From Minisyncoccia bacterium (GTDB taxonomy: Bacteria > Patescibacteriota > Minisyncoccia > Phycocordibacterales > UBA9973), in contig JBGATK010000006.1 in NCBI GenBank assembly GCA_044229265.1, forward strand, positions 8,232 to 72,231: a DNA stretch of 64,000 nt. The letters are read 5' to 3'. Below the pieces are notes generated by a model. The model was not told where the DNA came from. It did not search any database and saw nothing but the letters and a program-made list of their open reading frames with translations. A program made the position numbers and the translations under genes. Numbering within the stretch: position 1 is the stretch's first letter; every line of letters starts with the position of its first letter. Of this stretch, positions 7,230 through 51,818 are shown piece after piece.

Positions 7230-8654
<1,425 letters not shown>

Positions 8655-9672: not shown

Positions 9673-10404
9673 ATGGGTAAATTTTTTGTAATTGCGACCC
9701 CGATAGGAAATATGGGTGACATAACATATAGGGCAATAGAGACGCTAAAAATAGTGGATTTGATACTATGTGAAGATACACGCGAAACTGGAAAACTTTT
9801 GCATAAATATGATATTAAAAAGCCGACTATGTCATACCATGCACAGAGCAAACTCGCAAAGACAGATAAGATTTTTGCATTACTTGAGGAAGGGAAAGAT
9901 CTCGCCCTTGTTTCCGACGCTGGCACTCCTGGAATATCAGACCCAGGAGCAATGCTTGTCTCTCAGATCAAAGAGAGATATAACCTCACCCCTAACCACT
10001 CTCCTGACAGGAGAGGGGTCGAGACGCAGTCCGGGGGCGAGGTGATTGTGCAAGTTATTCCAATCCCTGGTGCTTCAGCTGTTATTACTGCGCTCTCTGC
10101 ATCAGGATTGCCGACTCATGAATTTACATTTCTTGGATTTTTACCACACAAAAAGGGCAGAGAAACATTGTTTAAAGAAATAGCCGAGGCAAAGAGAACA
10201 ATGGTATTTTACGAATCACCACATAGAATTTTAAAAACTCTAGAATCATTAAATAAATTTTGCCCAGGAAAAAAAGTCTGCATAGCTCGTGAAATTACTA
10301 AAATCTATGAAGAATTTAAAATTGGTTCTGCTAACGAGCTATTAGAATATCTAACAAAAAATCCAGTAAAACAAAAAGGGGAATTCACTGTAATCGTTTC
10401 TTAA
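9673..10404 (+). CDS. rsmI: 16S rRNA (cytidine1402-2'-O)-methyltransferase
   Basis: tetrapyrrole-methylase fold motifs IATPIGNxGDIT, LCEDTRxT, VSDAGTPGISDPG, IPGASA. About 20-aa GC-rich insert (see findings). Confidence 0.85.
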   Translation: MGKFFVIATPIGNMGDITYRAIETLKIVDLILCEDTRETGKLLHKYDIKKPTMSYHAQSKLAKTDKIFALLEEGKDLALVSDAGTPGISDPGAMLVSQIKERYNLTPNHSPDRRGVETQSGGEVIVQVIPIPGASAVITALSASGLPTHEFTFLGFLPHKKGRETLFKEIAEAKRTMVFYESPHRILKTLESLNKFCPGKKVCIAREITKIYEEFKIGSANELLEYLTKNPVKQKGEFTVIVS

Positions 10405-12356
10405 AGTAAATCCTCAGGGTCAATTTGAATTGTAAAATTCGGAGTTAAAGATAAAATTTTATTTAGCAAAACAAGATCAATTTTACTGGAGGGAGTTAAA
10501 GCAGGCAAAGACCAATTTTCTGTTTCTATTTTTAATATCATATTTGTAGTGTATTTATTTTTTTGTTTAGCTATATATCCAGTAAAAATTTCTGGATTGT
10601 ATTCTTTGAAAGTTTCTTCTAAAAATTTTTTTACAATAGTTGTTTTAATTTTGTCACCAATATGAATAATTTTTATGAATCTTGAATATGGAGGATAAGA
10701 AAGTATTTTGCGATCAGCCAGCTCTTCTCTTACAAATTGTGTCATTAAACCTGTTTTTATATTTTGCAAAAGAGAATCTGTAGTCTTTTTTGTTTGAATA
10801 ATAATTTTATCTTCTGTTTTTGAAATTATACCAATCATAAGCTGTAGTATTCTCTCATTTATTTTATAATTCGGTATACTCCAAAAAGCATCAAAAGAAG
10901 CCATAAATGTCATCGGTACTTTTTCTTTCATATAAAAAAGAGCAATCTCTGTGCCAACGAGTATTCCATATTTAGCATTTTCAAAATCTTCTATTATCTT
11001 TTCGGCATCTTTTTTATTTTTTGCTACATCTTTATCAAGTTTAAAGATTTTTACTTTTTCTTCATCAAAAACTTCCTTTATTTCTTTATGAATTGTATCT
11101 ACACCAATACCAAGAGGGAGCAGGTTCCAGCTATTACAGTTACTGCAGCGAGTATCCGGTGATTTTTCAGTCTTGCATTTATTACAAACAAACATTCTTT
11201 TTTGAGCATCTTTAGAAAGATAAAGAACCAGTGGAGAAGAGCAAGATTCGCAAACAATAGTATCGGCGCAATCACGACATATAGTATATGTAGCTAATCC
11301 TCGACGTAAGGAAAATATAAAAACCTTTTTCTTTTTTGCTAACATGTTTTTAATTTCTTCAATATTTTTTTCACTAAATATACTCCAAGTTTTTTTATTT
11401 TGTTTATTATTTTTGTTTTGAATTTCTATTTCACCAGAGAAACCTAAGCGATACGATAAAGGTGTAAAATTTGTAAAACCATCGCGCTCCCTGCGCCCTA
11501 AAGTTTCAAAGCGAAGCATAGTATCGGCGAGTATAAATTGCACCCCCATTTTACTTGCAAAAATTTCAGCAAAAGTGCGCATATCTATATAAGGCCTCAT
11601 TTGTGTTTTGTATGCACTAGAACTTTCGTGTTCCAATATAATAGTAGCTATATCGTTTCTAGGTATAGATAAAAAAGGTGCGGTTGCCAAAATCAAAACT
11701 GGGTGAGAGGTGGTAAAAATTTCTTTTAATTTCTCGTTTAATTTCTTTTTAGGTAAATTACTGTGCAATTCGTAAGTGAATGATTCTATACCTTTAGATA
11801 AAGTTTCGTAAAAAATATCTAGGTCGTGTTCTGTAGGAACTACAATGAATACAGAATTCTTTTTCGCAAATGAAGATCTGATTAAAGTTTTGTATATAGA
11901 AATCCTGTTTTCAAGTGAAGTCTGTAAAAGTAATTTTTCGTTTTTTATATTTAAATTTCTTTTTCTTATTCCTGTTTTATTTTCTGTGTCTTTTGATTGA
12001 TGAATTTTTAAATATTGGTCATATTCTTCTTTGAAAATATTTGGTATTAGACTTGCCAGGACATCGCTCGCTTGCGTCGCAAAATACATACTAGTTTCAA
12101 GTCCAGCTTCTATAAAACCACTTTCAAAGAAAGATGGTCCTTTATTTTCAATAATTTTACGAAGCCCAAATTCTAAATTTTTTACTTCTGTTTTTGATTC
12201 TGAAAGCTCTTCGATTTTTATCACTAAACCAAGTACTTTTTTGCTCCTTATTGGGACGAGTGTAATATCACCCAACTCTACTTCTTTCGATGTAAAATAA
12301 GTTAAATCACCTTTAAATATGGCTTTTTGGAGCGGTATTACTGTCAGAATTTTCAT
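10401..12356 (-). CDS. priA: primosomal protein N' (PriA), with degenerate ATPase motifs
   Basis: N-terminal 3'-DNA-binding domain, helicase core homology, two CxxC pairs (CRDC..CESC, CNKC..CSNC). Walker A GxGKT is absent (QTSLENRISIYK in its place) and DEEH reads LEHE. Confidence 0.8.
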   Translation of the reverse strand: MKILTVIPLQKAIFKGDLTYFTSKEVELGDITLVPIRSKKVLGLVIKIEELSESKTEVKNLEFGLRKIIENKGPSFFESGFIEAGLETSMYFATQASDVLASLIPNIFKEEYDQYLKIHQSKDTENKTGIRKRNLNIKNEKLLLQTSLENRISIYKTLIRSSFAKKNSVFIVVPTEHDLDIFYETLSKGIESFTYELHSNLPKKKLNEKLKEIFTTSHPVLILATAPFLSIPRNDIATIILEHESSSAYKTQMRPYIDMRTFAEIFASKMGVQFILADTMLRFETLGRRERDGFTNFTPLSYRLGFSGEIEIQNKNNKQNKKTWSIFSEKNIEEIKNMLAKKKKVFIFSLRRGLATYTICRDCADTIVCESCSSPLVLYLSKDAQKRMFVCNKCKTEKSPDTRCSNCNSWNLLPLGIGVDTIHKEIKEVFDEEKVKIFKLDKDVAKNKKDAEKIIEDFENAKYGILVGTEIALFYMKEKVPMTFMASFDAFWSIPNYKINERILQLMIGIISKTEDKIIIQTKKTTDSLLQNIKTGLMTQFVREELADRKILSYPPYSRFIKIIHIGDKIKTTIVKKFLEETFKEYNPEIFTGYIAKQKNKYTTNMILKIETENWSLPALTPSSKIDLVLLNKILSLTPNFTIQIDPEDLL

Positions 12357-13418: not shown

Positions 13419-14108
13419 ATGTTGCAAAAACATATTCAAAAAGAAAATTTACACCATGCTTATTTGTTGTCAGGGGATATGAAAAATATTTTGGAGAATT
13501 TATTTTCTCTACTTAGTGATTTTGGCATTAAAATACAAAAAAATCCTGATTTTCATTTACTTTCATACGATACTCTAAAAATAGATGATGCTCGGCATGT
13601 AAAGAGTTTGGCAGAAAATAGAAGCTTTGACGGTAGTAAAAAAGTATTTGTAATCTCAGTTAATAATTTTTTACCAGAATCACAAAATACTTTGCTCAAA
13701 ATTTTTGAAGAACCAAAAGAAAATATGCATTTTTTTATAATTTCCAAAAATGCGGATTCATTTTTATCTACACTTCGTTCGCGCTGTTATTTGATAAACT
13801 TAGAGCAAGACAAAAATACAAATGAAGAGATTGAGAAATTTTTAAATACATCTTTGCAAAACAAAATCGACCACGTAAAAAATTTACTCGATACTGATGA
13901 AGATAAAGGTGAAGCCTCTTCTCGCACCTTGGCTTTGGAATTTTTAGATCAAATAGAATCTGCTCTCCATAATCGAATGTCAAAGATGCCCTTTGACACA
14001 GATATTTTCCACAAAATTTTCACTGCCCGTAAATATATCCGTGGAGCGGGGAGTAGTCCAAAAAATATTCTAGAAGCTATTGTCTTAAATTTACCAGAAA
14101 AAGTATAG
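13419..14108 (+). CDS. holB: DNA polymerase III delta' subunit (short form)
   Basis: HAYLLSG N-terminus, SRC-like LRSRC motif, P-loop not conserved as expected for delta'. Confidence 0.7.
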   Translation: MLQKHIQKENLHHAYLLSGDMKNILENLFSLLSDFGIKIQKNPDFHLLSYDTLKIDDARHVKSLAENRSFDGSKKVFVISVNNFLPESQNTLLKIFEEPKENMHFFIISKNADSFLSTLRSRCYLINLEQDKNTNEEIEKFLNTSLQNKIDHVKNLLDTDEDKGEASSRTLALEFLDQIESALHNRMSKMPFDTDIFHKIFTARKYIRGAGSSPKNILEAIVLNLPEKV

Positions 14109-14145
14109 TTTCTAATTTATAGTTAATTTGTTATAATACCCACAT

Positions 14146-14697
14146 ATGCAATACAATTTCAATGATTTAAAAACAGAATTAAAAAAGGCTGAAGGGCATT
14201 TGGAAAAAACCTATCGTGAGCTCAATATTGGCAGGGCGAGTCCCATGGTACTCGATGGCGTTTCTGTTGAAGTTTATGGTCAGTATCAACCTATAAAAAA
14301 TATAGCTTCTATAAATATCGAAGATCCTAAAACTTTACGTCTAGCACCTTGGGATAAAACTCAAATAAAATCTATAGAAAAGGCGATAATGCTAGCTGAC
14401 TTGGGGCTTTCTCTTGCTGTTGATGATGCAGGTATTCGTGTTATATTTCCTCAGCTTACCACAGAAACTCGCGGTAAATTAGCTAAAGTATTGAAAGACA
14501 AATTAGAAGATGCTCGTATATCAGTTCGTAAAATTCGTGGCGATGTTTGGGAAGAAATTCAGGAAAAACAAAAGGAGGGTGTCATGACCGAGGATGAAAG
14601 AAAATGGGCTAAAGATGAACTTGAAAAAATAGTAAGCGAGGTAAATAAAAATTTGGAAGAAATGTTTAATAAGAAAGAAATGGAAGTAATGAATTAA
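14146..14697 (+). CDS. frr: ribosome recycling factor
   Basis: 183 aa, conserved RRF three-helix-bundle pattern. Confidence 0.9.
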   Translation: MQYNFNDLKTELKKAEGHLEKTYRELNIGRASPMVLDGVSVEVYGQYQPIKNIASINIEDPKTLRLAPWDKTQIKSIEKAIMLADLGLSLAVDDAGIRVIFPQLTTETRGKLAKVLKDKLEDARISVRKIRGDVWEEIQEKQKEGVMTEDERKWAKDELEKIVSEVNKNLEEMFNKKEMEVMN

Positions 14698-14710
14698 ATA
14701 AAAAATAAAT

Positions 14711-15808
14711 ATGAATGTACTAATTTTTATAGTTATCTTGCTGGTACTAGTAATCGTTCATGAATTTGGGCATTTTTTTACTGCGAAAAAGTTTGGTATA
14801 CGAGTAGATGAATTTGGTTTTGGTTTTCCGCCAAAAATTTTTGGCATTAAAAGAGGGGAAACAGAGTATACTTTTAACGCACTTCCGATTGGTGGTTTTG
14901 TGAAAATTTTCGGTGAGAATCCGGATGAGGATAGTATAAATGGTCCTGACGCAAAACGTAGTTTTGTAAATAAGCCAAGGTGGCAGCAAGCTATAGTGCT
15001 TTTTGCAGGAGTATTTGCTAATTTTTTACTAGCATGGATACTTTTTTCTTTCGCTTTTTTCTCGGGCATGCCTACATCGGTGCGAAGTGAAATGCGTGAT
15101 TATATAGTGGGCGGAACGAATCTGGTAATTATTTCTGTTTTGCCTGATTCGCCAGCAGAATTAGCAGGGCTCTCTTCTGGAGATAAGATACTAGGTGTTT
15201 CGTCTGTAAAACATAAATTAGAAACAATTACATCAGAAAGTTTTAGTAATTTTGTTTCTAGCCATGGCGGAGAAAGTTTGAATATTACTTACACAAATAA
15301 AAATAATGAAGAAAAAAATATTGAAATTATTCCTAAAATAAAAGAAGGTGAGAGTAAAGCTTTAATTGGGATTTCTATGGATGAAATTGGAGTAGTGAAA
15401 TTCCCTATAGGGCGTGCATTTTATGAAGGTTTTAAAATGAACTTTTTTGTTATTAAAGCTACTGCTGTAGGATTGTATCAATTCATAATACAGAGTGTTC
15501 AAGGCAAAGCAAATTTTGATGCTGTGGCAGGGCCTGTAGGTATGGCCGGCATAGTGGGGGATGCTTATAAATTTGGTTTCGCTTATTTAGTATCTTTTAT
15601 GGCTATACTTTCTGTGAATTTAGGAGTATTAAACCTAGTGCCATTTCCAGCTCTCGACGGTGGGCGATTACTATTTTTACTTATAGAAAAGATAAAAGGT
15701 TCACGCCTCTCACCAAAATTTGCGAATACAGCAAATGCTATAGGATTCTTTATCCTAATAGGGCTTATGATTCTAGTTACTTATCACGACATTGCAAAAT
15801 TATTTTAA
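14711..15808 (+). CDS. rseP: RIP site-2 zinc metalloprotease RseP (M50) with PDZ domain
   Basis: HEFGH zinc motif at the N-terminus, PDZ segment, NLVPFPALDGG motif. Confidence 0.9.
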   Translation: MNVLIFIVILLVLVIVHEFGHFFTAKKFGIRVDEFGFGFPPKIFGIKRGETEYTFNALPIGGFVKIFGENPDEDSINGPDAKRSFVNKPRWQQAIVLFAGVFANFLLAWILFSFAFFSGMPTSVRSEMRDYIVGGTNLVIISVLPDSPAELAGLSSGDKILGVSSVKHKLETITSESFSNFVSSHGGESLNITYTNKNNEEKNIEIIPKIKEGESKALIGISMDEIGVVKFPIGRAFYEGFKMNFFVIKATAVGLYQFIIQSVQGKANFDAVAGPVGMAGIVGDAYKFGFAYLVSFMAILSVNLGVLNLVPFPALDGGRLLFLLIEKIKGSRLSPKFANTANAIGFFILIGLMILVTYHDIAKLF

Positions 15809-17555
15809 ATGGAAAACAGGAATTGCCACCCCGAACGAAAGCAAAGCTTCATACGGGGCAGGAAATTGTAAAAGTATGGAATATAAACCACAAAATGTAA
15901 TATGCCAGAATTGTAGTGGTGAATTCATAATCGAACCAGACGATTTTTCTTTTTATGAAAAGATGAAAGTTCCAGCGCCGCATGTCTGCCCAGACTGTCG
16001 TTTTAAAATGCGCGCAATTTTTAGAAATGAAAACAAATTATATTCAGGAAGAAAATGTGATTTATGCCAAAAAAGTATAATTGCAATGTATAACCCAAAA
16101 TCTCCTTACAAGGTATATTGTCCCGAGTGTTATGCAAGCGATAACTGGGACCGCTCTTCATACGCCAAAGATTATGATTTTTCTAAATCATTTTTTGAGC
16201 AACTAAAAGAGCTAACATTATCTGTGCCCAAAATGAATTTGTATGTTACTTATTTAAATGGACCTGTAATAAATAGCCCTTTTAACAATGGTTTTGGCGG
16301 GGCCAAGAATTGCTATTATCTATTTAATGGAGGTCCTGCGGAAAATACTCAGTATTCTCGAGGGGTAAAAGATGTAAAAGATATTTCGGATTGTTATTTT
16401 TCCACTAAAATAGAAAATTCTTACGAAGCTATAAATGTACACAACTCTAACAAGATATTTTTTAGTCAGAATGTTACAAATTCCATAGAGTCAGCTTTTC
16501 TTATTAATTGCAATAACTGTATAAATTGTATTGGTTGTGTAAATTTAAACAATAAAAGTAATTGTATTTTAAATGAACAGTATACAAAAGAAGGGTACAT
16601 AGAAAAAGTAAATGAAATATTTGGTAGTTATGAAAAGATAGAAGATTTTAAAAAATCATTTTATGAGTTTTCTTTAACTTTTCCGCATAGAGAAAACAAT
16701 AATATTAAAACAGTAGATTCTACAGGAGATTATCTGAGTGAATGTAAAAATGTTAAAAATAGCATGGAAATTACTCAGAGCGAAAATGTTAAAGACGCTT
16801 TCTCTTCTAAGCAACTCAAAGATTCTATAGGAGTTTTTGGTTATGGGTTCAGTTCTGAATCTTTACTCGAAGTCGTAGCTACAGGTCATTCAAGTAATAT
16901 TATAGGTTCGTATGGCATAGATGAATCTATGAATATAGAATATAGTTTTTGTTGTTTTCCAAATAATGCCTATTTAATTGGCTGTGATTCCTTGAAAAAT
17001 TCTAAATACTGCATTTTAAATAAACAATACACAAAAGAAGAGTACGAGAAAATTAGAGAACATATTGTAAAAGAATTAACAGACCTTGGTATTTATGGCC
17101 TCATGATGCCACCATCCATCGCACCTTTTGCTTACAATGAAACTATCGCGCAAGATAACATGCCCCTGACCAAAGAAGAAGCCATTGCGCAAGGGTTTAG
17201 ATGGGAAGATGATATTCAGAAAACTGAAGGCAAGGAGACTATAAAACCAGAGCAAATTCCAGACCATATTCGTGATGTAGAGGACAGTATTACAAAAGAA
17301 ATTTTGTGTTGCATAGAGTGCAATAGGAATTATAAAATTACCGAACAAGAATTACTATTTTACCGAAAAATGATTTTGCCTATTCCAAGGAAATGTTTCT
17401 ATTGTCGCCACAAGAGCCGTATAGAAAAACGTGGCCCATACAAATTTTGGAACAGAAATTGTGCCAAGTGCGAAAAAGAAATTATCACAAATTATTCTCC
17501 GGAAAGGCCAGAGATAGTGTACTGTGAGCGTTGTTATCAAAGTGAAGTCTATTAA
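15792..17555 (+). CDS. cysteine-rich repeat protein with duplicated N- and C-terminal tandem zinc-ribbon modules (start may be 15877)
   Basis: CxxC..FYxKM..PxPxxCxxCR..RN..C..C..Y.P..P..VYC..CY occurs at both termini. Internal repeats NxxCILNxQYTKEEY. No catalytic motif recognised. Confidence 0.6.
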   Translation: MQNYFKWKTGIATPNESKASYGAGNCKSMEYKPQNVICQNCSGEFIIEPDDFSFYEKMKVPAPHVCPDCRFKMRAIFRNENKLYSGRKCDLCQKSIIAMYNPKSPYKVYCPECYASDNWDRSSYAKDYDFSKSFFEQLKELTLSVPKMNLYVTYLNGPVINSPFNNGFGGAKNCYYLFNGGPAENTQYSRGVKDVKDISDCYFSTKIENSYEAINVHNSNKIFFSQNVTNSIESAFLINCNNCINCIGCVNLNNKSNCILNEQYTKEGYIEKVNEIFGSYEKIEDFKKSFYEFSLTFPHRENNNIKTVDSTGDYLSECKNVKNSMEITQSENVKDAFSSKQLKDSIGVFGYGFSSESLLEVVATGHSSNIIGSYGIDESMNIEYSFCCFPNNAYLIGCDSLKNSKYCILNKQYTKEEYEKIREHIVKELTDLGIYGLMMPPSIAPFAYNETIAQDNMPLTKEEAIAQGFRWEDDIQKTEGKETIKPEQIPDHIRDVEDSITKEILCCIECNRNYKITEQELLFYRKMILPIPRKCFYCRHKSRIEKRGPYKFWNRNCAKCEKEIITNYSPERPEIVYCERCYQSEVY

Positions 17556-17615
17556 ATGCTACTGTGCCCTTCGTAGCTTTTGCGAAGTAGGGTCAACAGG
17601 AAGTTTATTAAATAT

Positions 17616-18197
17616 ATGAAAAAAATTATTGAATTAAATACAAAAAAAGAAATAGCCTTTGTAAGGTCAGATTTACCGATGATGGTGCATGGGGTAGAGC
17701 ATTCTGGTGCATCACTCCTCTCTATAACCATAGCAACCATTTTGCATGCAGGTGGTGAAAAGCTTTGTATTTTTACTGCTTATCCTATGGCAAAAGATGA
17801 ATTCTTGGCCGAAGTATCAAACCCTGAAGATGTATTTTATTTAGAGAATTTTGAGGATTTAACTAAGGCTAATAATTTCCAGACGATAATTGTAGAAAGT
17901 GGTAATATTGAATTGTTCAAAAAAGTTATAGCTGAAAAGGAATTATTAGGGAATAGAATTGTATTTATTAAAAATATTGAAACAATAAATCAGCCTACTT
18001 TAGAAAAATTGCAGGATTATGATTTTATGGTTTCTGGTGATTTTAGTACAAATATTTTGCAGAAAGATTTTAATGATTTAGAATACAAGACAAAAATTTT
18101 CCTTTCTCCACTTTCTCCGTTTATCGTTCCTGTTTTGGCGAAGTATCAAGCTTTTTTACAAAAAGGAACAGAAGAAAAAATTATTATTATTTCTTAA
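17616..18197 (+). CDS. hypothetical protein (193 aa), possibly co-transcribed with the upstream Cys-rich gene
   Basis: ORF with a leader hairpin related to the atpD/dnaK leaders. Alternative start at 17580. Confidence 0.5.
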   Translation: MKKIIELNTKKEIAFVRSDLPMMVHGVEHSGASLLSITIATILHAGGEKLCIFTAYPMAKDEFLAEVSNPEDVFYLENFEDLTKANNFQTIIVESGNIELFKKVIAEKELLGNRIVFIKNIETINQPTLEKLQDYDFMVSGDFSTNILQKDFNDLEYKTKIFLSPLSPFIVPVLAKYQAFLQKGTEEKIIIIS

Positions 18198-18705
18198 AAT
18201 TCTCGAAAAATAATTTCTCAGAAATACTATCTATTTTATTTGTTGTAATTATTACGAGCTCGGTGGTAAGGCCCAAATCTTTTTTAATATTTTCAAAAAG
18301 ATATTCATATGGAAAAGGGGAGATCCAAGCAGAATTTTTGAGGCACACAAAGCCAGCTTTTTTGAGGAGGTATCTTAGGCTCTCCCGCTCGGCTTTTCTA
18401 CTCTCTGGTAAATCAAGAAGTATAATACGCCAAAACCCATCCCAATTTGGGTTTACTAGAGCTTCTTCGCCAGAGACAAGTAGGCTATTTAAGCGTTTTT
18501 TACCCTCTTTAGTGAGGCGGGCATAGCTTTGGTGTTCTGACTCATGTAGCTCTGCCAAACCTCCTTCTACGAGGTTTTTGAGGCTTCTAGCGAGGGCGTA
18601 TTTGGATTTAGTATTATCTTTTTCTTTTAAAAATTCTAAAGCTACGGCTTGCTTTTCGCCTAGTTTTTTAAGGATTTTTTTGGAAAAGTCGTTTTTACTT
18701 GACAT
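18187..18705 (-). CDS. PaaX-like winged-helix transcriptional regulator, divergent from dnaK
   Basis: N-terminal wHTH, C-terminal WDGFWRIILLDLPE..R..LRYLLKKAGF..LKNSAWISPFP pattern typical of PaaX-family C-domains. Confidence 0.55.
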   Translation of the reverse strand: MSSKNDFSKKILKKLGEKQAVALEFLKEKDNTKSKYALARSLKNLVEGGLAELHESEHQSYARLTKEGKKRLNSLLVSGEEALVNPNWDGFWRIILLDLPESRKAERESLRYLLKKAGFVCLKNSAWISPFPYEYLFENIKKDLGLTTELVIITTNKIDSISEKLFFENFKK

Positions 18706-18770
18706 GTGGATATCGTATCATATATACTCTATTTATACAAGTATTTCGCGAACGCGAAAAAAGAGTAAAA

Positions 18771-18814
18771 TGTCAAAGGGCATCTTTGACACATAAAATT
18801 ATTAACCATTATAA
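18771..18814 (+). promoter_or_regulatory. dnaK promoter (TTGACA-17-TTATAA) with inverted-repeat operator TGTCAAAG-N5-CTTTGACA overlapping the -35
   Basis: IR at 18771-18791, -35 at 18786-18791, -10 at 18809-18814. Second palindrome TTTCGCG-AA-CGCGAAA at 18744-18759. Confidence 0.5.
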
Positions 18815-18860
18815 ACTAATTTATCCTTCGTCGCTAAAGCTATGAAGGACAAGAAAACAT

Positions 18861-20756
18861 ATGTCAAAAATAATAGGTATAGACTTAGGTACAACAAATA
18901 GTGCGGTGGCTATCATCGAAGGAGGACAGCCAAAAATTATAGAAAATATAGAAGGAGTACGAACTACACCTTCTGTGGTGAGTATTGCTAAAAATGGTGA
19001 TAGACTGGTAGGCTTGCTTGCAAAACGTCAAGCTGTCACAAATCCTGAAAATACCGTTTATGGTATCAAGCGTTTTATGGGCCATAATTTTGAAGATCCA
19101 GAAGTGCAAAAGGATTTGAAGAATGCATCATTCAAAATTCAAAAAGGATCAACTGGTGGAGTGGAAGTTAAGATTGGCGATAAATGGATGCGTCCAGAAG
19201 AAATCTCTGCCATGATTTTAACTAAAATTAAAACTGATGTTGAAGCAAAATTAGGAACTAAAATTACCGAAGCAGTGATCACCGTGCCAGCATACTTTAA
19301 CGATGCACAAAGAAAAGCTACCAAAGATGCAGGAGCTATCGCTGGGCTTGATGTAAAAAGAATTATCAACGAGCCTACAGCTGCAGCCCTTGCCTATGGT
19401 TTCGATAAAAAGAAAAATGAAAAGGTAGTGGTGTATGACTTTGGAGGAGGAACATTCGATGTGTCAGTTCTCGAAATCGGTGATGATGTTATAGAGGTGA
19501 AATCAACTGATGGAGACTCCCATTTAGGAGGTCGTGATATTGATCACAAGATTATAGCTTGGATCGCAGAAGAATTTAAAAAGACCTCTGGTGTGGATGT
19601 TCGTTCTGATAAGCTTGCTCTTCAGCGTCTTGATGAAGCTGCAGAAAAAGCAAAGATAGAGCTCTCTACTGCTATTGAAACAGAGATAAATATTCCTTTC
19701 ATTACGAGTACCGAAGCTGGACCTCAACACCTCTTACTCAAGATGACTCGTGCACAATTAGAAAGTATTGCTGATGAGTACATAACTCGTTCAATTGAAA
19801 TCACAAAGAAAGCTTTAGCTGCTTCTGGTTTCAGTATGAATGATATAAATGAAATCATTATGGTTGGAGGTCAAACTCGTATGCCAAAGATTGTAGAAGA
19901 AGTTAAAAAAGTTTTTGGTAAAACTCCAAACCTCTCTATTAATCCAGATGAAGTTGTAGCACTTGGAGCTGCTGTGCAAGCTGGAGTTCTCGCAGGAGAT
20001 GTTAGAGATGTACTTCTTCTTGATGTCATACCACTTTCCCTTGGTATTGAAACTTTGGGTGGTGTAGCTACAAAATTAATTGAAAGAAACACTACAATCC
20101 CTGCAAATAAATCTCAAGTATTCTCTACAGCAGCTGATAATCAAACCAGTGTAGAAATTCATATAGTACAAGGTGAACGTCCTATGGCGAGCGACAACAA
20201 ATCTCTAGGTCGTTTTATTCTAGATGGAGTTCCACCTGCACCTCGTGGCATGCCACAGATAGAAGTCTCCTTTGATGTCGACGCAAATGGTATATTAAAT
20301 GTTACAGCTAAAGACAAAGCTTCAGGTAAAGCAAATTCTATAAAAATAGAAGCAAGCTCAGGTCTTAAAGATGAAGACATTAAAAAAATGCAGGCTGATG
20401 CGGAAATGCATGCCGAAGAAGATGCAAAGAAAAAAGAAATGGTTGATGTGAAAAATACTGCCGAGATGATACTCTATACAGCTGAGAAAGCAGTAAAAGA
20501 TGCTGGTGATAAAGTTTCTACTGAAATTAAAGCTGGTGTCGAAGGTAAAATTACAGCCCTCAAATCTGCAAAAGATGGTAGTGATATGGAAGCAATTAAA
20601 AAAGCTACCGAAGAACTCTCAAATGAAATGCAAAAGATAGGTGAGGCTATGGCGAAAAGTTCACCCGAGTCCGATGGAGGCGGACAGGCGAATCAAACAC
20701 CCGAACCTCAACCAGAAGAAATTAAAAACGAAAATCCTGAAGAGCCAAAAAATTAA
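18861..20756 (+). CDS. dnaK: molecular chaperone DnaK (Hsp70)
   Basis: [18 protein letters not shown], 631 aa. Confidence 0.97.
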
Positions 20757-20770
20757 TATTAAAAAAACAA

Positions 20771-20796
20771 AAAAACCCGAATTCGGGTTTTTTTGT
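20771..20796. terminator. intrinsic terminator after dnaK (bidirectional-looking)
   Basis: aaaaaaa-cccgaattcggg-ttttttt. Confidence 0.85.
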
Positions 20797-20797
20797 T

Positions 20798-20826
20798 TTG
20801 CTTTGCTCCTCTCTAGTTGTTATAAT
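20798..20826 (+). promoter_or_regulatory. sigma70-like promoter TTGCTT-17nt-TATAAT. The downstream gene would be nearly leaderless
   Basis: -10 ends 8 nt before the ATG at 20835. Confidence 0.45.
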
Positions 20827-20834
20827 TTAAGTAT

Positions 20835-23075
20835 ATGCATGGAGGGGAAGAAGATAAAAAAAGTAATGGCGATTTACCTGTAAATCGTGATTTAACCTAT
20901 ATCGGTAAAACAACGTATCGTGATAAAAACACGCTTTTTGGAATTAAAAGAAAAGATAGGCGTCAACATGTATATGTGCTCGGTAAATCTGGTACTGGTA
21001 AATCTGTTCTTCTTTCAAATATGATTGTGCAAAATATTCAAAATGGCGACGGTGTCGCTGTGGTGGATCCGCACGGAGAATTAGTCGAAGGAATACTTCA
21101 GTCTATCCCCGAAAATCGTCTAAAAGATGTAGTGTATTTTAATCCTGCAGATGTAGACTTTCATATTGGTTTTAATGTCTTAGAATTAGTGGATTTAAAA
21201 TACAAACACTTAGTTGCTTCTGGGCTCATGGGTATATTTACCAAAATTTGGGCTAATGCTTGGAGTGCGCGTATGGAATACATTCTGAACAATACAATCT
21301 TGGCTCTGCTCGATACTCCAGGCACCACACTTCTCGGTGTTCCTCGTATGCTTGTAGACAAAGATTATCGTCAACAAATAATAAATAATTTAAAAGACCC
21401 TGTTATTAAAGCTTTTTGGGTGCACGAATATGAAGCTTGGCAAGAAAAATTTCGTAATGAAGCGATCGCTCCTATTCAAAATAAAGTTGGGCAATTTCTC
21501 TCTACTTCTGTTATTCGCAATATTGTTGGACAAAGTAAAAGTACTATAAATATTTTTGATATGATGAATCAAGGGAAAATTTTCCTCGTGAACGTTTCTA
21601 AAGGACGTATTGGTGAAGATAACTCAAAACTTATCGGTGGTATGATTATTACCAAAATTCAGCTGGCTGCCATGGAGCGTGTGCGTATACCAGAAGACGA
21701 GCGTAAAGATTTTTATCTATATGTCGACGAATTCCAAAATTTCGTTACTGATTCTTTTGCTTCAATTTTATCTGAAGCTCGTAAATACCGCCTGAATTTG
21801 ACTGTGGCCCACCAATATACTGCTCAGCTTGTAACCAAAGAGAGTTCAAATGTTCGTGATGCTATTTTCGGCAACGTAGGAACTATGATAGTTTTTAGAG
21901 TTGGTGCGGATGATGCTGATTTTCTAGAAAAAGAATTTGCACCAGAATTCACACCAGAAGATTTAGTGAATTTGCCTAACTTTAAAATTTACCTAAAACT
22001 TATGATAGATGGCATAACCTCAAGGCCATTTTCTGCAAAAACATTACCTCCGATAATTAAAAAGCTTGATCATACTATAGAAGAACAAGTTATTAAAATG
22101 TCTCGAGAGCTTTATTGTCGCCCTCGTGATACTGTCGAAAATGAAATAAATCAGTGGAGTGGTATGTCTATAGACGATGGAGCTTCTGGCGGGGGAAATA
22201 CTGGTGAAAAATTCAAAGCAATTTGTTCGAATTGCGGTAAAGAAACTTTTGTGCCTTTTGAACCTACACCAGGCAGGCCTGTGTATTGCAAAGAGTGTGT
22301 AGCAAAAATAAAATCTGGCGAAGTAAAGCCAATACGAGGCGTTACGGGTCAAGAATTTCGTGACGATAGTAAATACTTTAAACCACTTGCTGATTTAGGT
22401 ATAGAATTTGAAAGTGGGGGTAGTGTTCAAAAAGAAAAACCAAAAGTTTTTCAAAATAATATTCCTAAACCTCCAGCTATGCCGTATATACCAAGAGTAA
22501 ACAATACTGCTCCCATGCAACAGCCACAAAAAACTTTTACACAAAATGTAAAGAAAGTATTAAATACAAATTTAACAGCACCATTTCATAAAAATAACGC
22601 TAATAATAGTGCTGGTAAACCCAGTGTGCCTAATAAAAATTTCGCAGATAAACCGAAAGAAAATTTAGCTCTTAAAGAAATTTTGAATAAAACCTTAAAT
22701 GAACAAAAAATTATTGAACTAAAAAAAGAAGAAAAAATAATAGAAGACAAGAAACCGACTCCAGCACCAATTTCCTTAAATACTTTACAAAGCAAACCCG
22801 TGAGTAATGATATAAAACCGACAAATGATCGCTCCGCCGGAGCCGATAAAATGAATTCTTTGAAAGATTTGCTTGCTAAAGTAGAGGGTGAGAGAAAAGA
22901 AAACGAAAAACCAATAGAAAATAAACCTCCAGAAATTCCTATTCCACAAAAAAATACACCACCCCGTTTTGATCAAGCTCAAAACACCCCTCCTTTAAAA
23001 GGTGGGGAAGAAAAAATACAACCCAAAGAAGTACCAGAAGAAGTCCTGAAGAAAATTCTAGAAGATGAAAATTAA
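20835..23075 (+). CDS. soluble TraD/TraG/VirD4-like (type IV coupling protein family) P-loop ATPase with C-terminal zinc ribbon and Pro/Lys-rich tail
   Basis: Walker A GKSGTGKS, DPHGE, Walker B YVDEFQNF, RKYRLNLTVAHQ, no N-terminal TM helices. CSNCGK..RPVYCKEC ribbon. Confidence 0.7.
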   Translation: MHGGEEDKKSNGDLPVNRDLTYIGKTTYRDKNTLFGIKRKDRRQHVYVLGKSGTGKSVLLSNMIVQNIQNGDGVAVVDPHGELVEGILQSIPENRLKDVVYFNPADVDFHIGFNVLELVDLKYKHLVASGLMGIFTKIWANAWSARMEYILNNTILALLDTPGTTLLGVPRMLVDKDYRQQIINNLKDPVIKAFWVHEYEAWQEKFRNEAIAPIQNKVGQFLSTSVIRNIVGQSKSTINIFDMMNQGKIFLVNVSKGRIGEDNSKLIGGMIITKIQLAAMERVRIPEDERKDFYLYVDEFQNFVTDSFASILSEARKYRLNLTVAHQYTAQLVTKESSNVRDAIFGNVGTMIVFRVGADDADFLEKEFAPEFTPEDLVNLPNFKIYLKLMIDGITSRPFSAKTLPPIIKKLDHTIEEQVIKMSRELYCRPRDTVENEINQWSGMSIDDGASGGGNTGEKFKAICSNCGKETFVPFEPTPGRPVYCKECVAKIKSGEVKPIRGVTGQEFRDDSKYFKPLADLGIEFESGGSVQKEKPKVFQNNIPKPPAMPYIPRVNNTAPMQQPQKTFTQNVKKVLNTNLTAPFHKNNANNSAGKPSVPNKNFADKPKENLALKEILNKTLNEQKIIELKKEEKIIEDKKPTPAPISLNTLQSKPVSNDIKPTNDRSAGADKMNSLKDLLAKVEGERKENEKPIENKPPEIPIPQKNTPPRFDQAQNTPPLKGGEEKIQPKEVPEEVLKKILEDEN

Positions 23076-50474: not shown

Positions 50475-51818
50475 TTAGCATATTTTATGGTCTATAGCAC
50501 TCTTAAGCCTAGCTAAAGCCTCATCTTGGCCTAGTGTATAAGCCAAAATAAATGGATCTGGACTTTTATCCATACCAGATAGTGCTATACGCACAGGATG
50601 CAAAGTTTGACCTACACTACCACCAGCTTTAGCAATCATAGTTAGAACTTCTTTAATTTTTTCTAAATTATAATCCTCACTTTTTATACTTTTTAATGCC
50701 TCGAAAGCACTCATAAGTCTAACTTTAACATCAGCAAGTGTCATGTTCTTAAAAATTAATTTTTGGGTAGGGTAGTCATTGGCAGAAAAAATGAAATTAA
50801 GCTCCCCCATTTCTATCATTTTTTTTACATCAGACCATTTGGAAATTCTGTCAAAAATAATAGGAATAATTTTTGTTATAACTTCCCTATTTAAATTTTT
50901 AAAATTCTCGGGTAAAAATTCCAAAATATTTTTTTCAATTTCTTCAATGCTCAAATTCTTCATATGCATTTTATTGAACCATTCTAATTTTTCTTCATTA
51001 AAAACTGCCGGGCTTTTTTGTACTCGTTCTAAATCAAATTCTGTTATCAATTCATCATGAGTGAATATTTCTTTTTCAGTACCAGGATTCCATCCTACAA
51101 AAGCAGTTCCGTTTAAAATAGCTTGTGGTAAAAAACCCAAGTTTTTATATTCGCTAGCAGATCTAGCTCCGCGACGCTTTGAAAGCTTTTGTTTATCTAT
51201 ACCAAGGACTAGCGGCAAATGCGCATATATTGGCGTAGGTGCGCCTATAGCACGTTGGATTAGGATTTGCCTAGGTGTATTTGATACGTGGTCTTCTCCA
51301 CGAATTACGTGAGTTATACCTTCTTCGAAATCATCCACAACTACAGCTAGGTGAAAAAGTGGTTCATTTAAATTTTTAGCAATTACGAAATCACCTAAAT
51401 CCTCGGTATGAATTTTTACCTCACCTTTTATTAAATCAAAAAAAGTAATATCTATTTTAGGATTTTTAAAACGCACGATTTCTTTTATAACTCCCGAACC
51501 ATCTTTTGCTTCTTCTTTTGAGATATAAGCAGTGCCATCAGCTATCATTTTTTCTAGATATTTTTTATGGGTATCTACGTGTTCACTTTGACGGTAAAAT
51601 TCATCATAAGGTAGATCAAGCCATTTTAAGCTCTCTAATATATCCTCTTCATATTCTTTTTTACTACGTTCTTTGTCTGTATCTTCGATGCGCAAAATAA
51701 ATTTGCCGTTATTCTTTTTAGCAAAAAGATAAGAAAAAATAGCAGTACGGAATACACCCAAATGCAGTAATCCTGTAGGACTCGGAGCAAAACGCGTAAT
51801 TACTGGTTTTTCATTCAT
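50475..51818 (-). CDS. gltX: glutamate--tRNA ligase
   Basis: PSPTGLLHLG (HIGH) and KLSKR (KMSKS). Confidence 0.95.
   Translation of the reverse strand: MNEKPVITRFAPSPTGLLHLGVFRTAIFSYLFAKKNNGKFILRIEDTDKERSKKEYEEDILESLKWLDLPYDEFYRQSEHVDTHKKYLEKMIADGTAYISKEEAKDGSGVIKEIVRFKNPKIDITFFDLIKGEVKIHTEDLGDFVIAKNLNEPLFHLAVVVDDFEEGITHVIRGEDHVSNTPRQILIQRAIGAPTPIYAHLPLVLGIDKQKLSKRRGARSASEYKNLGFLPQAILNGTAFVGWNPGTEKEIFTHDELITEFDLERVQKSPAVFNEEKLEWFNKMHMKNLSIEEIEKNILEFLPENFKNLNREVITKIIPIIFDRISKWSDVKKMIEMGELNFIFSANDYPTQKLIFKNMTLADVKVRLMSAFEALKSIKSEDYNLEKIKEVLTMIAKAGGSVGQTLHPVRIALSGMDKSPDPFILAYTLGQDEALARLKSAIDHKIC

Follow-up and report, generated by a model that had tools for sequence, protein, structure and literature searches.

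HspR and HrcA are heat-shock repressors under chaperone feedback, and act at the inverted repeats HAIR (CTTGAGT-N7-ACTCAAG) and CIRCE (TTAGCACTC-N9-GAGTGCTAA), respectively. To our knowledge, very few transcription factors are recognisable in the Patescibacteria (candidate phyla radiation, CPR), and the regulation of their stress genes is almost unexplored. Here we describe the region upstream of dnaK in a 64-kb stretch of A+T-rich DNA (the window; G+C 33.7%) on contig JBGATK010000006.1 of a Minisyncoccia bacterium, whose close relatives are metagenome-assembled Nomurabacteria/Paceibacterota genomes within the Patescibacteria. In this window dnaK (18861-20756, + strand; Pfam HSP70, E = 1.8e-245) is transcribed divergently from a gene for a 172-residue PaaX-like protein (18187-18705, - strand), which we call mini-PaaX. 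We suggest that, in Patescibacteria of the Paceibacteria/Nomurabacteria type, the locus is probably a conserved control module made up of two genes, with a 16-nt palindrome as the candidate operator, and we show that a more conspicuous 21-nt inverted repeat in the dnaK leader, which a sequence-only reading of the same DNA had taken for the operator, is a dispersed mobile palindrome of the repetitive extragenic palindromic (REP) kind. The sequences, open reading frame (ORF) and dnaK gene on which that reading relied were all found in place when the window was read again.

The arrangement resembles HspR/HAIR and HrcA/CIRCE in that a repressor-type gene is linked to a chaperone gene, an inverted repeat lies at the promoter, and autoregulation or feedback is plausible. 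In contrast to HspR, which is of the MerR type, and to HrcA, the regulator belongs to an unrelated family that combines a winged helix-turn-helix (wHTH) with a Cas2-like domain; it is divergent from dnaK rather than co-transcribed with it, grpE lacks the site, and the operator sequence is different. The earlier statement that neither inverted repeat matches CIRCE or HAIR holds, as there were no CIRCE matches at up to 3 mismatches and the three HAIR-like matches were at chance level, with none near dnaK.

Among described proteins, PaaX of Escherichia coli gives the best fold match to the regulator. PaaX is a phenylacetyl-CoA-responsive repressor with a sensing C-terminal domain that represses its own gene by hindering RNA polymerase, and its site in E. 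coli is TGATTC-N27-GAATCA (PMC9493321). Like PaaX, the regulator has an N-terminal winged helix followed by a Cas2-like middle domain: residues 86-160 match Pfam PF20803 (PaaX_M, the central Cas2-like domain of PaaX; E = 1.8e-19), and the top Protein Data Bank match of its AlphaFold model in a Foldseek search was E. coli PaaX (8a39), followed by PaaX-like proteins (3l09 is also a PaaX entry) and wHTH proteins of the MarR/RosR kind. A Pfam search with the N-terminal half (the wHTH-like region covers approximately residues 1-77) returned no match, and a winged helix there is supported at the level of fold, by a model of moderate confidence (predicted local distance difference test score 77 overall, 67-79 in the N-terminal half and 84-92 in the Cas2-like domain) with the topology H-H-H-E-E-H followed by a beta-alpha-beta-beta-alpha-beta domain. 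The sequence-only reading was thus right about a divergent ORF and its wHTH fold, but the Pfam domain is PaaX_M and not the PaaX-like C-domain that it had named. Unlike PaaX, the regulator ends at residue 172 and lacks the C-terminal helical inducer-binding domain, its presumed target is dnaK rather than the paa genes, and the half-sites of its candidate operator are 2 bp apart as opposed to the N27 spacing of the E. coli PaaX site. The protein is not a PaaX equivalog: this C-terminal domain is missing, and the equivalog model TIGR02277 gives it only 29 bits where the cut-off is 264.55, with profile positions 40-136 of 279 covered.

Homologues of mini-PaaX are numerous, with 1897 in a large protein collection, the best 120 of which are 63-97% identical to it. 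Across 31 aligned members the Cas2-like half is nearly invariant, and three residues of the predicted recognition helix (Y36, R40 and K43) are present in all 31, which would be in keeping with a conserved operator. More distant paralogues with the same wHTH plus Cas2-like architecture (26-30% identity, with an N-terminal hydrophobic segment) were seen in two further loci, L111 (11489-12031, - strand) and L142 (1806-2408, - strand), where they adjoin secA and mur ligase genes or a HIT-like gene; since neither is linked to dnaK, the linkage holds only for the present subfamily.

The evidence that ties this subfamily to dnaK comes from its genomic neighbourhood. A scan of one genome per species gave 229 loci encoding the regulator, and 80 of these were fetched for neighbourhood reading; the close relatives L081, L082, L083 and L204 were fetched individually, and the fetched loci amounted to 1.47 Mb. 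In 77 of the 80 species-level genomes dnaK lies directly upstream of the regulator on the opposite strand, and in the other three the contig ends too early. The same divergent arrangement is found in five further loci, L081, L082, L204, L132 and L083, in the last of which the start of dnaK lies at the contig end. The synteny that the sequence-only reading had predicted is therefore strongly borne out. The other neighbour of the regulator varies among relatives and is often a convergent grpE; dnaJ follows dnaK in a few of them. The pairing of regulator and dnaK is real, conserved and lineage-wide among these relatives, which are tiny groundwater bacteria, and apparently undescribed; no paper connecting PaaX-like proteins with dnaK came up in a literature search.

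Conservation at these loci extends to the DNA between the two genes. We aligned the intergenic regions of 83 distinct loci, anchored on the 16-nt palindrome; in many genomes the region is exactly 87 nt long and contains only a conserved module, which reads cTTGACAt, 18 nt including TATCATA, TATACT, approximately 6 nt, TTATACAAGT and the palindrome TTmGyG-rN-CrCrAA. TTGACA is present in 79 of the 83 loci, and TTGACA-18 nt-TATAyT in 77. In the window this promoter, P1, has its -35 TTGACA at 18699-18704 (+ strand), overlapping the Met-Ser-Ser codons of the regulator and hence its start codon, and its -10 TATACT at 18723-18728 (+ strand) within the near-invariant block TATCATATATACT. A promoter scan ranked P1 as the best sigma-70-like site in 13500-21000 (11 of 12 matches, 18-nt spacer). 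Its TTGACA persists even in loci that lack an overlapping start codon, or that carry an inserted G+C-rich hairpin alongside. We conclude from this pattern that P1 is probably the conserved promoter of dnaK, from which transcription would start near 18735. The sequence-only reading had placed the dnaK promoter 87 nt further downstream, with the perfect TTGACA in the 21-nt repeat as its -35; the -10 paired with this is TATAAA, 18 nt away (18786-18815, + strand). The TTGACA is present as described, but the conserved dnaK promoter lies upstream and this one is at best a weak secondary promoter (P2), which the scan did not list because the sixth position of TATAAA is not a T.

On the opposite strand, the regulator has a putative promoter of its own within the same DNA. 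An extended -10, TGaTACGAT, lies at 18712-18720 (- strand), 6 nt before its ATG, and the invariant TATCA block of the module, read on that strand, forms the TG-A-TA start of this element. The ATACAAGT box at 18735-18742, conserved across the 83 loci as TTatACAAgt, may provide a TTGTAT -35, and in many relatives it is also the left outer arm of an extended palindrome. The layout TGnTAnnnT followed after 5-9 nt by ATG recurs before many genes of the window and before 19 of 22 grpE genes of relatives, and we infer from this recurrence that the regulator mRNA is leaderless and that its promoter overlaps P1 completely. Examples of the layout include 14146, 10401-12356 (- strand), 28835 and 50475-51818 (- strand) in the window, and grpE in L005-L082; in relatives grpE comes after rpsI and a terminator and has such a promoter, TGCTAAAAT. 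The placement of the layout at so many genes implies widespread leaderless mRNAs. Shine-Dalgarno (SD) sequences are absent from most genes of the window, with SD-like tracts in 4 of 57. Genomes of a more distant group have a second promoter close to consensus (TTGCwA-17 nt-TATAAT) just downstream of the candidate operator. The -35 of this promoter shares sequence with the right outer arm of the extended palindrome (ACAAGT...ACTTGY), so that the site stands between two -35 elements.

The 16-nt palindrome itself, TTTCGCGAACGCGAAA (TTTCGCG-AA-CGCGAAA, 18744-18759), is the best candidate for the operator of the regulator, because it is conserved with P1 at a fixed distance and varies in the way that a DNA site does. 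In nearly all loci 38-39 nt separate it from the ATG of the regulator, which places it at approximately +9 to +25 relative to P1 and -39 to -54 relative to the promoter of the regulator. Three of its six symmetric pairs (positions 1/14, 4/11 and 6/9) are invariant across the 83 loci, position 3/12 is non-complementary in 36 of them, and positions 5 and 10 vary independently (C/G 26, T/A 11, T/G 32, C/A 14), a pattern that fits a protein-binding DNA site better than an RNA stem. The sequence-only reading had ranked this palindrome second to the 21-nt repeat and had held that absence of the repeats upstream of dnaK in relatives would count against its proposal; the 21-nt repeat is indeed absent there, but the 16-nt palindrome is conserved. 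The window holds no second copy of the palindrome at up to 2 mismatches, and a scan of the 1.47 Mb found convincing sites only in linkage with dnaK, other matches being non-palindromic or within coding sequence.

The 21-nt inverted repeat has an entirely different distribution. The copy in the dnaK leader, TGTCAAAGGGCATCTTTGACA (18771-18791), consists of the arms TGTCAAAG-GGCAT-CTTTGACA with TTGACA at 18786-18791, and forms a hairpin with an 8-bp stem and a 5-nt loop (minimum free energy, MFE, -8.6 kcal/mol; z = -4.8). It is flanked by TAAAA at 18766-18770 and 18794-18798, possibly by chance in A+T-rich DNA. A second exact copy, the reverse complement of the first including the spacer, lies at 13978-13998, in frame within holB (DNA polymerase III delta', by Pfam), where it encodes SKMPFDT; the 21-mer is far beyond chance expectation. 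The repeat is absent upstream of dnaK in the 83 related loci (L001-L083), including those whose regulators are 97%, 92% and 85% identical, and among the dnaK-linked loci fetched it is common only to the window and L204 (DnaK 98.9% identical). An exact-match scan of metagenome contigs gave at least 145 copies in at least 120 contigs (L084-L203), in both orientations, in at least 133 distinct flank contexts and with up to three copies per 8-kb contig. Among these contigs the flanks are conserved only as R at -1 and Y at +1, and close variants such as GTCAAGGATGCCCCTTGAC accompany the exact copies. Pairs of repeats 640-670 nt apart bracket ORFs of 206-217 residues that begin MxNRDYKxF and carry the motifs PNHFHLL (HUH) and YIHMNPVK (YIHxNP); they match Pfam Y1_Tnp (4.5e-11) and the NCBIfam model for REP-associated tyrosine transposases (RAYTs; 8.2e-20, 71 bits against a cut-off of 80), and a RAYT homologue adjoins the repeat in 22 of the 120 contigs. 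These RAYT ORFs end inside the downstream repeat (...VKGHL or ...VKDAL followed by the stop codon, and ...SKGIFDT), and the orientation of the loop relative to the RAYT varies. The repeat is thus a dispersed REP-like mobile palindrome associated with RAYT transposases.

REP elements are short palindromic repeats of approximately 20-40 nt with a conserved unpaired GTAG/CGTC tag at one end (PMC3733652), and the pattern described above is that of REP/REPIN elements and their partner RAYTs (PMC2817692, PMC3116915, PMC3337134). The 21-mer shares with them its stem-loop, its dispersal in both orientations, some close inverted doublets and the bracketing of a single Y1/HUH gene of the RAYT type. Unlike classical REPs, its unit is only 21-23 nt and perfectly palindromic, no GTAG/CGTC tag is seen in the flank logos of the listed contigs, its density here is low (two copies in 64 kb), about half of the listed copies lie in ORFs, and the identical 21-mer accompanies divergent RAYTs, mutually only 30-46% identical, on contigs of 28-65% G+C. 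Rickettsia palindromic elements, of approximately 100-150 bp and without a known RAYT partner, are likewise tolerated in frame within protein genes, although the unit here is 21 nt. The 21-mer is seven codons long and has two open frames out of three on each strand, which may account for its tolerance in coding regions. In recR it lies in a variable linker. The holB orthologue in L205 keeps the repeat exactly (7560-7580) with different flanks, and that in L204 (7560-7580) has a degenerate version, TGTCGGGGGCGGTCTTTGACA, with 15 of 21 positions retained; since REP-free holB orthologues (SKSVFDP or SGAVFDT at the site) equal the REP-bearing ones in length, the holB copy is probably either old or a product of change without net insertion. 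Literature and plasmid searches found no prior report of the 21-mer, and no paper that links RAYTs or REPs to CPR bacteria.

Taken together, the explanation that we favour, and consider likely, is a conserved control module of regulator, 16-nt operator and dnaK, to which the REP is extraneous. Mini-PaaX would bind TTTCGCG-AA-CGCGAAA as a dimer through its wHTH, held together by the Cas2-like domain, and the bound regulator would block P1 and so repress dnaK. As the two promoters overlap and the site abuts that of the regulator, binding should also set the synthesis of the regulator itself, with a position that is compatible with either sign. Proteotoxic stress would then release the regulator and de-repress dnaK; the release signal might, speculatively, be chaperone titration, perhaps through contact of the Cas2-like domain with DnaK, by analogy with HspR and HrcA. 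The REP would have landed in the long, insertion-prone dnaK leader of one sub-lineage, bringing TTGACA as a by-product, and the hairpin at the dnaK start codon, considered below, would be a separate, recurring module of the 5' untranslated region (UTR) that atpD also uses. A bolder version, which we rate at somewhat less than an even chance, would make mini-PaaX proteins the unrecognised, dedicated proteostasis repressors of Paceibacteria/Nomurabacteria, which bind TTmGyG-N2-CrCrAA between two divergent promoters that overlap fully and so set dnaK and the regulator in competition for RNA polymerase, with the almost invariant Cas2-like domain as the sensor, for example in feedback from DnaK.

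Several observations weigh against this explanation and should be read alongside it. The operator assignment derives from conservation and position, and part of the conservation of the TATCATATATACT block perhaps serves the regulator promoter instead of P1. The palindrome was not found in any of 22 grpE upstream regions of relatives, where the sequence-only reading had suggested looking for it. The position of the site relative to the regulator promoter (-39 to -54) could signify activation rather than auto-repression, and the regulator could answer to a signal other than heat. As regards the REP, there is no RAYT gene within the 64-kb window, 68 of 128 evaluable listed copies lie in frames that are open for at least 90 nt on both sides, which is atypical for classical REPs, and the window and L204 are identical across the 21-mer and the DNA around it, so that co-option in this sub-lineage is possible. 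With respect to other chaperone targets, no second chaperone gene was found in the window, either among ten ORFs searched against Pfam or by tblastn with GroEL, GroES, the DnaJ J-domain and GrpE; tblastn with E. coli GroEL and GroES queries also found neither gene in the 1.47 Mb.

Among the alternatives, the regulator may bind the palindrome without being a heat-shock repressor, as an activator, as an autoregulator for another signal, or as a gene that merely shares its promoter region with dnaK. The operator centre at approximately -46 of the regulator promoter is compatible with activation, grpE lacks the site in the 22 relatives, and relatives of PaaX sense metabolites (PMC9493321). We nevertheless consider it unlikely, since a site at +9 to +25 of P1 has classic repressor geometry, the ligand domain of PaaX is missing, and the linkage to dnaK is almost invariant while other neighbours vary.

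Co-option of the REP in the sub-lineage of the window and L204, in which REP and downstream leader are identical, appears improbable to much the same degree. The REP would here supply either a basal promoter independent of the operator (P2) or a 5'-UTR hairpin that affects the stability of dnaK mRNA or pausing. In support of it, TTGACA-18 nt-TATAAA has promoter geometry (TTATAA at 17 nt is an alternative -10), the hairpin is stable, and the true second promoter of the distant relatives makes a second promoter a recurrent solution. Against it, the -10 is weak because it lacks a T at position 6, the closest relatives manage without the REP, and -10 hexamers 16-18 nt from REP ends show no excess across the listed copies. 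A general role of the REP as a portable -35 was rejected on this last ground, and since there is no such excess and TATAAA lacks the conserved final T, its TTGACA is best read as incidental. In this sub-lineage alone, the REP may still act as a weak secondary promoter or through its mRNA hairpin.

RNA structure was also considered, both for the leader near the start codon and for the palindrome. The sequence-only reading had proposed an RNA layer of heat-shock control by a leader hairpin (UCCUUC...GAAGGA; 18824-18849, + strand; MFE -11.6 kcal/mol, z = -3.5), which with its CAAGAAAACAU tail (18824-18860, + strand) ends at the dnaK AUG. The hairpin is genuine, with homologues before dnaK in L013, L017, L020/L132, L032, L036 and L204 and compensatory changes in the lower stem (UCCUUC/GAAGGA versus GCCGCC/GGCG(A)GC, and others); they share a GC-UAAA-GC top and a CAAGAAAA tail before the AUG. 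However, it does not appear to be specific to heat shock, as the same module, with a 6-bp stem and a 3x3 internal loop below this top, precedes atpD (7265-7301, + strand, hairpin 7265-7291, ATG at 7302; the atp cistron before it was identified by Pfam and by the atp gene order in L204) and a SWIB-domain gene (L190, approximately 1145-1185). A further copy follows the regulator in L032 (4544-4570), and the nearest relatives L081-L083 lack the hairpin before dnaK. Two of the four SD-like tracts in the window lie in such modules. The RNA thermometers ROSE and fourU also occur in heat-shock gene leaders, and the hairpin resembles them in its place near the start codon and in a 3' arm that holds the only SD-like tract, GAAGGA; it differs in that the AUG is unpaired, the predicted stem is stable at 50 C (-8.3 kcal/mol), SD sequences are rarely used here, the module occurs before other genes and it has no Rfam match, a search of the window against Rfam having returned two tRNAs alone, with no credible match in 18650-18900. 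In appearance it is a 5'-UTR module of general use among some highly expressed genes.

Between operator and dnaK start, the leaders of relatives carry differing G+C-rich hairpins, terminator-like stems and an element of approximately 100 nt bounded by inverted repeats. The latter resembles a miniature inverted-repeat transposable element, with the bounds AAATTAATCTTCTAAAAATGC...GCATTTTTAAAAGATTAATTT, and was seen in L082 (1978-2190), L083 (55-230), L010, L076, L039, L019 and L057, and in the opposite orientation in L037 and L073. G+C-rich hairpins of 23-70 nt have also been inserted at the very 5' end of the regulator gene, where duplicated TTGAC motifs flank them (L010, L011, L014, L019, L053, L057, L065, L076 and L204, 12282-12330), and the TTGACA beside the P1 spacer is always retained. 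This diversity fits a dnaK leader that is an insertion hot spot, with the REP copy as one more insertion.

A role for the 16-nt palindrome as an RNA hairpin in the leader transcribed from P1, for stability or thermosensing, rather than as a DNA operator strikes us as very improbable. Transcripts from P1 would include it, and it is able to fold (MFE -6.2 kcal/mol), but shuffled sequences fold equally well (z = -1.9), its half-sites vary without covariation and leave position 3/12 unpaired in the 36 loci, a 2-nt centre is typical of dimer operators and not of RNA loops, and it keeps a constant distance from promoter elements on both strands. Weakest of all, and close to refuted, is the proposal of the sequence-only reading that the 21-nt repeat is an operator over the real -35 of dnaK that occludes RNA polymerase: in its favour are a perfect 8+8 palindrome that contains TTGACA with TATAAA 18 nt downstream, and conservation with its flanks in L204, but it is missing from all 83 loci (regulators 58-97% identical) despite a conserved recognition helix, it recurs in at least 133 unrelated contexts, about half inside genes and some flanking transposase genes, its 5-nt spacer is exactly conserved although a dimeric wHTH operator does not require this, and its paired -10 lacks the T at position 6; absence from the related loci and the dispersed, RAYT-associated copies rule it out as a conserved operator.

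In the window dnaK appears to be monocistronic, with a terminator-like hairpin after it (20764-20799). On the other side of the regulator, two unannotated ORFs occupy the place that grpE has in many relatives: one of 587 residues (15792-17555) has treble-clef zinc-finger matches at both ends and no clear family, and one of 205 residues (17580-18197) has no match and overlaps the 3' end of the regulator gene by 11 nt at its own 3' end.

On a practical level, the locus is a warning for motif searches, as the most striking perfect palindrome with a perfect -35 proved to be a mobile REP-like element. The 21-mer is of interest in its own right, being kept identical beside divergent RAYTs and on contigs of very different base composition, with about half of the listed copies in frame inside genes. 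For the Patescibacteria, a regulator-operator pair adjacent to dnaK and kept in every evaluable locus provides a concrete hypothesis for chaperone control by a new protein architecture.

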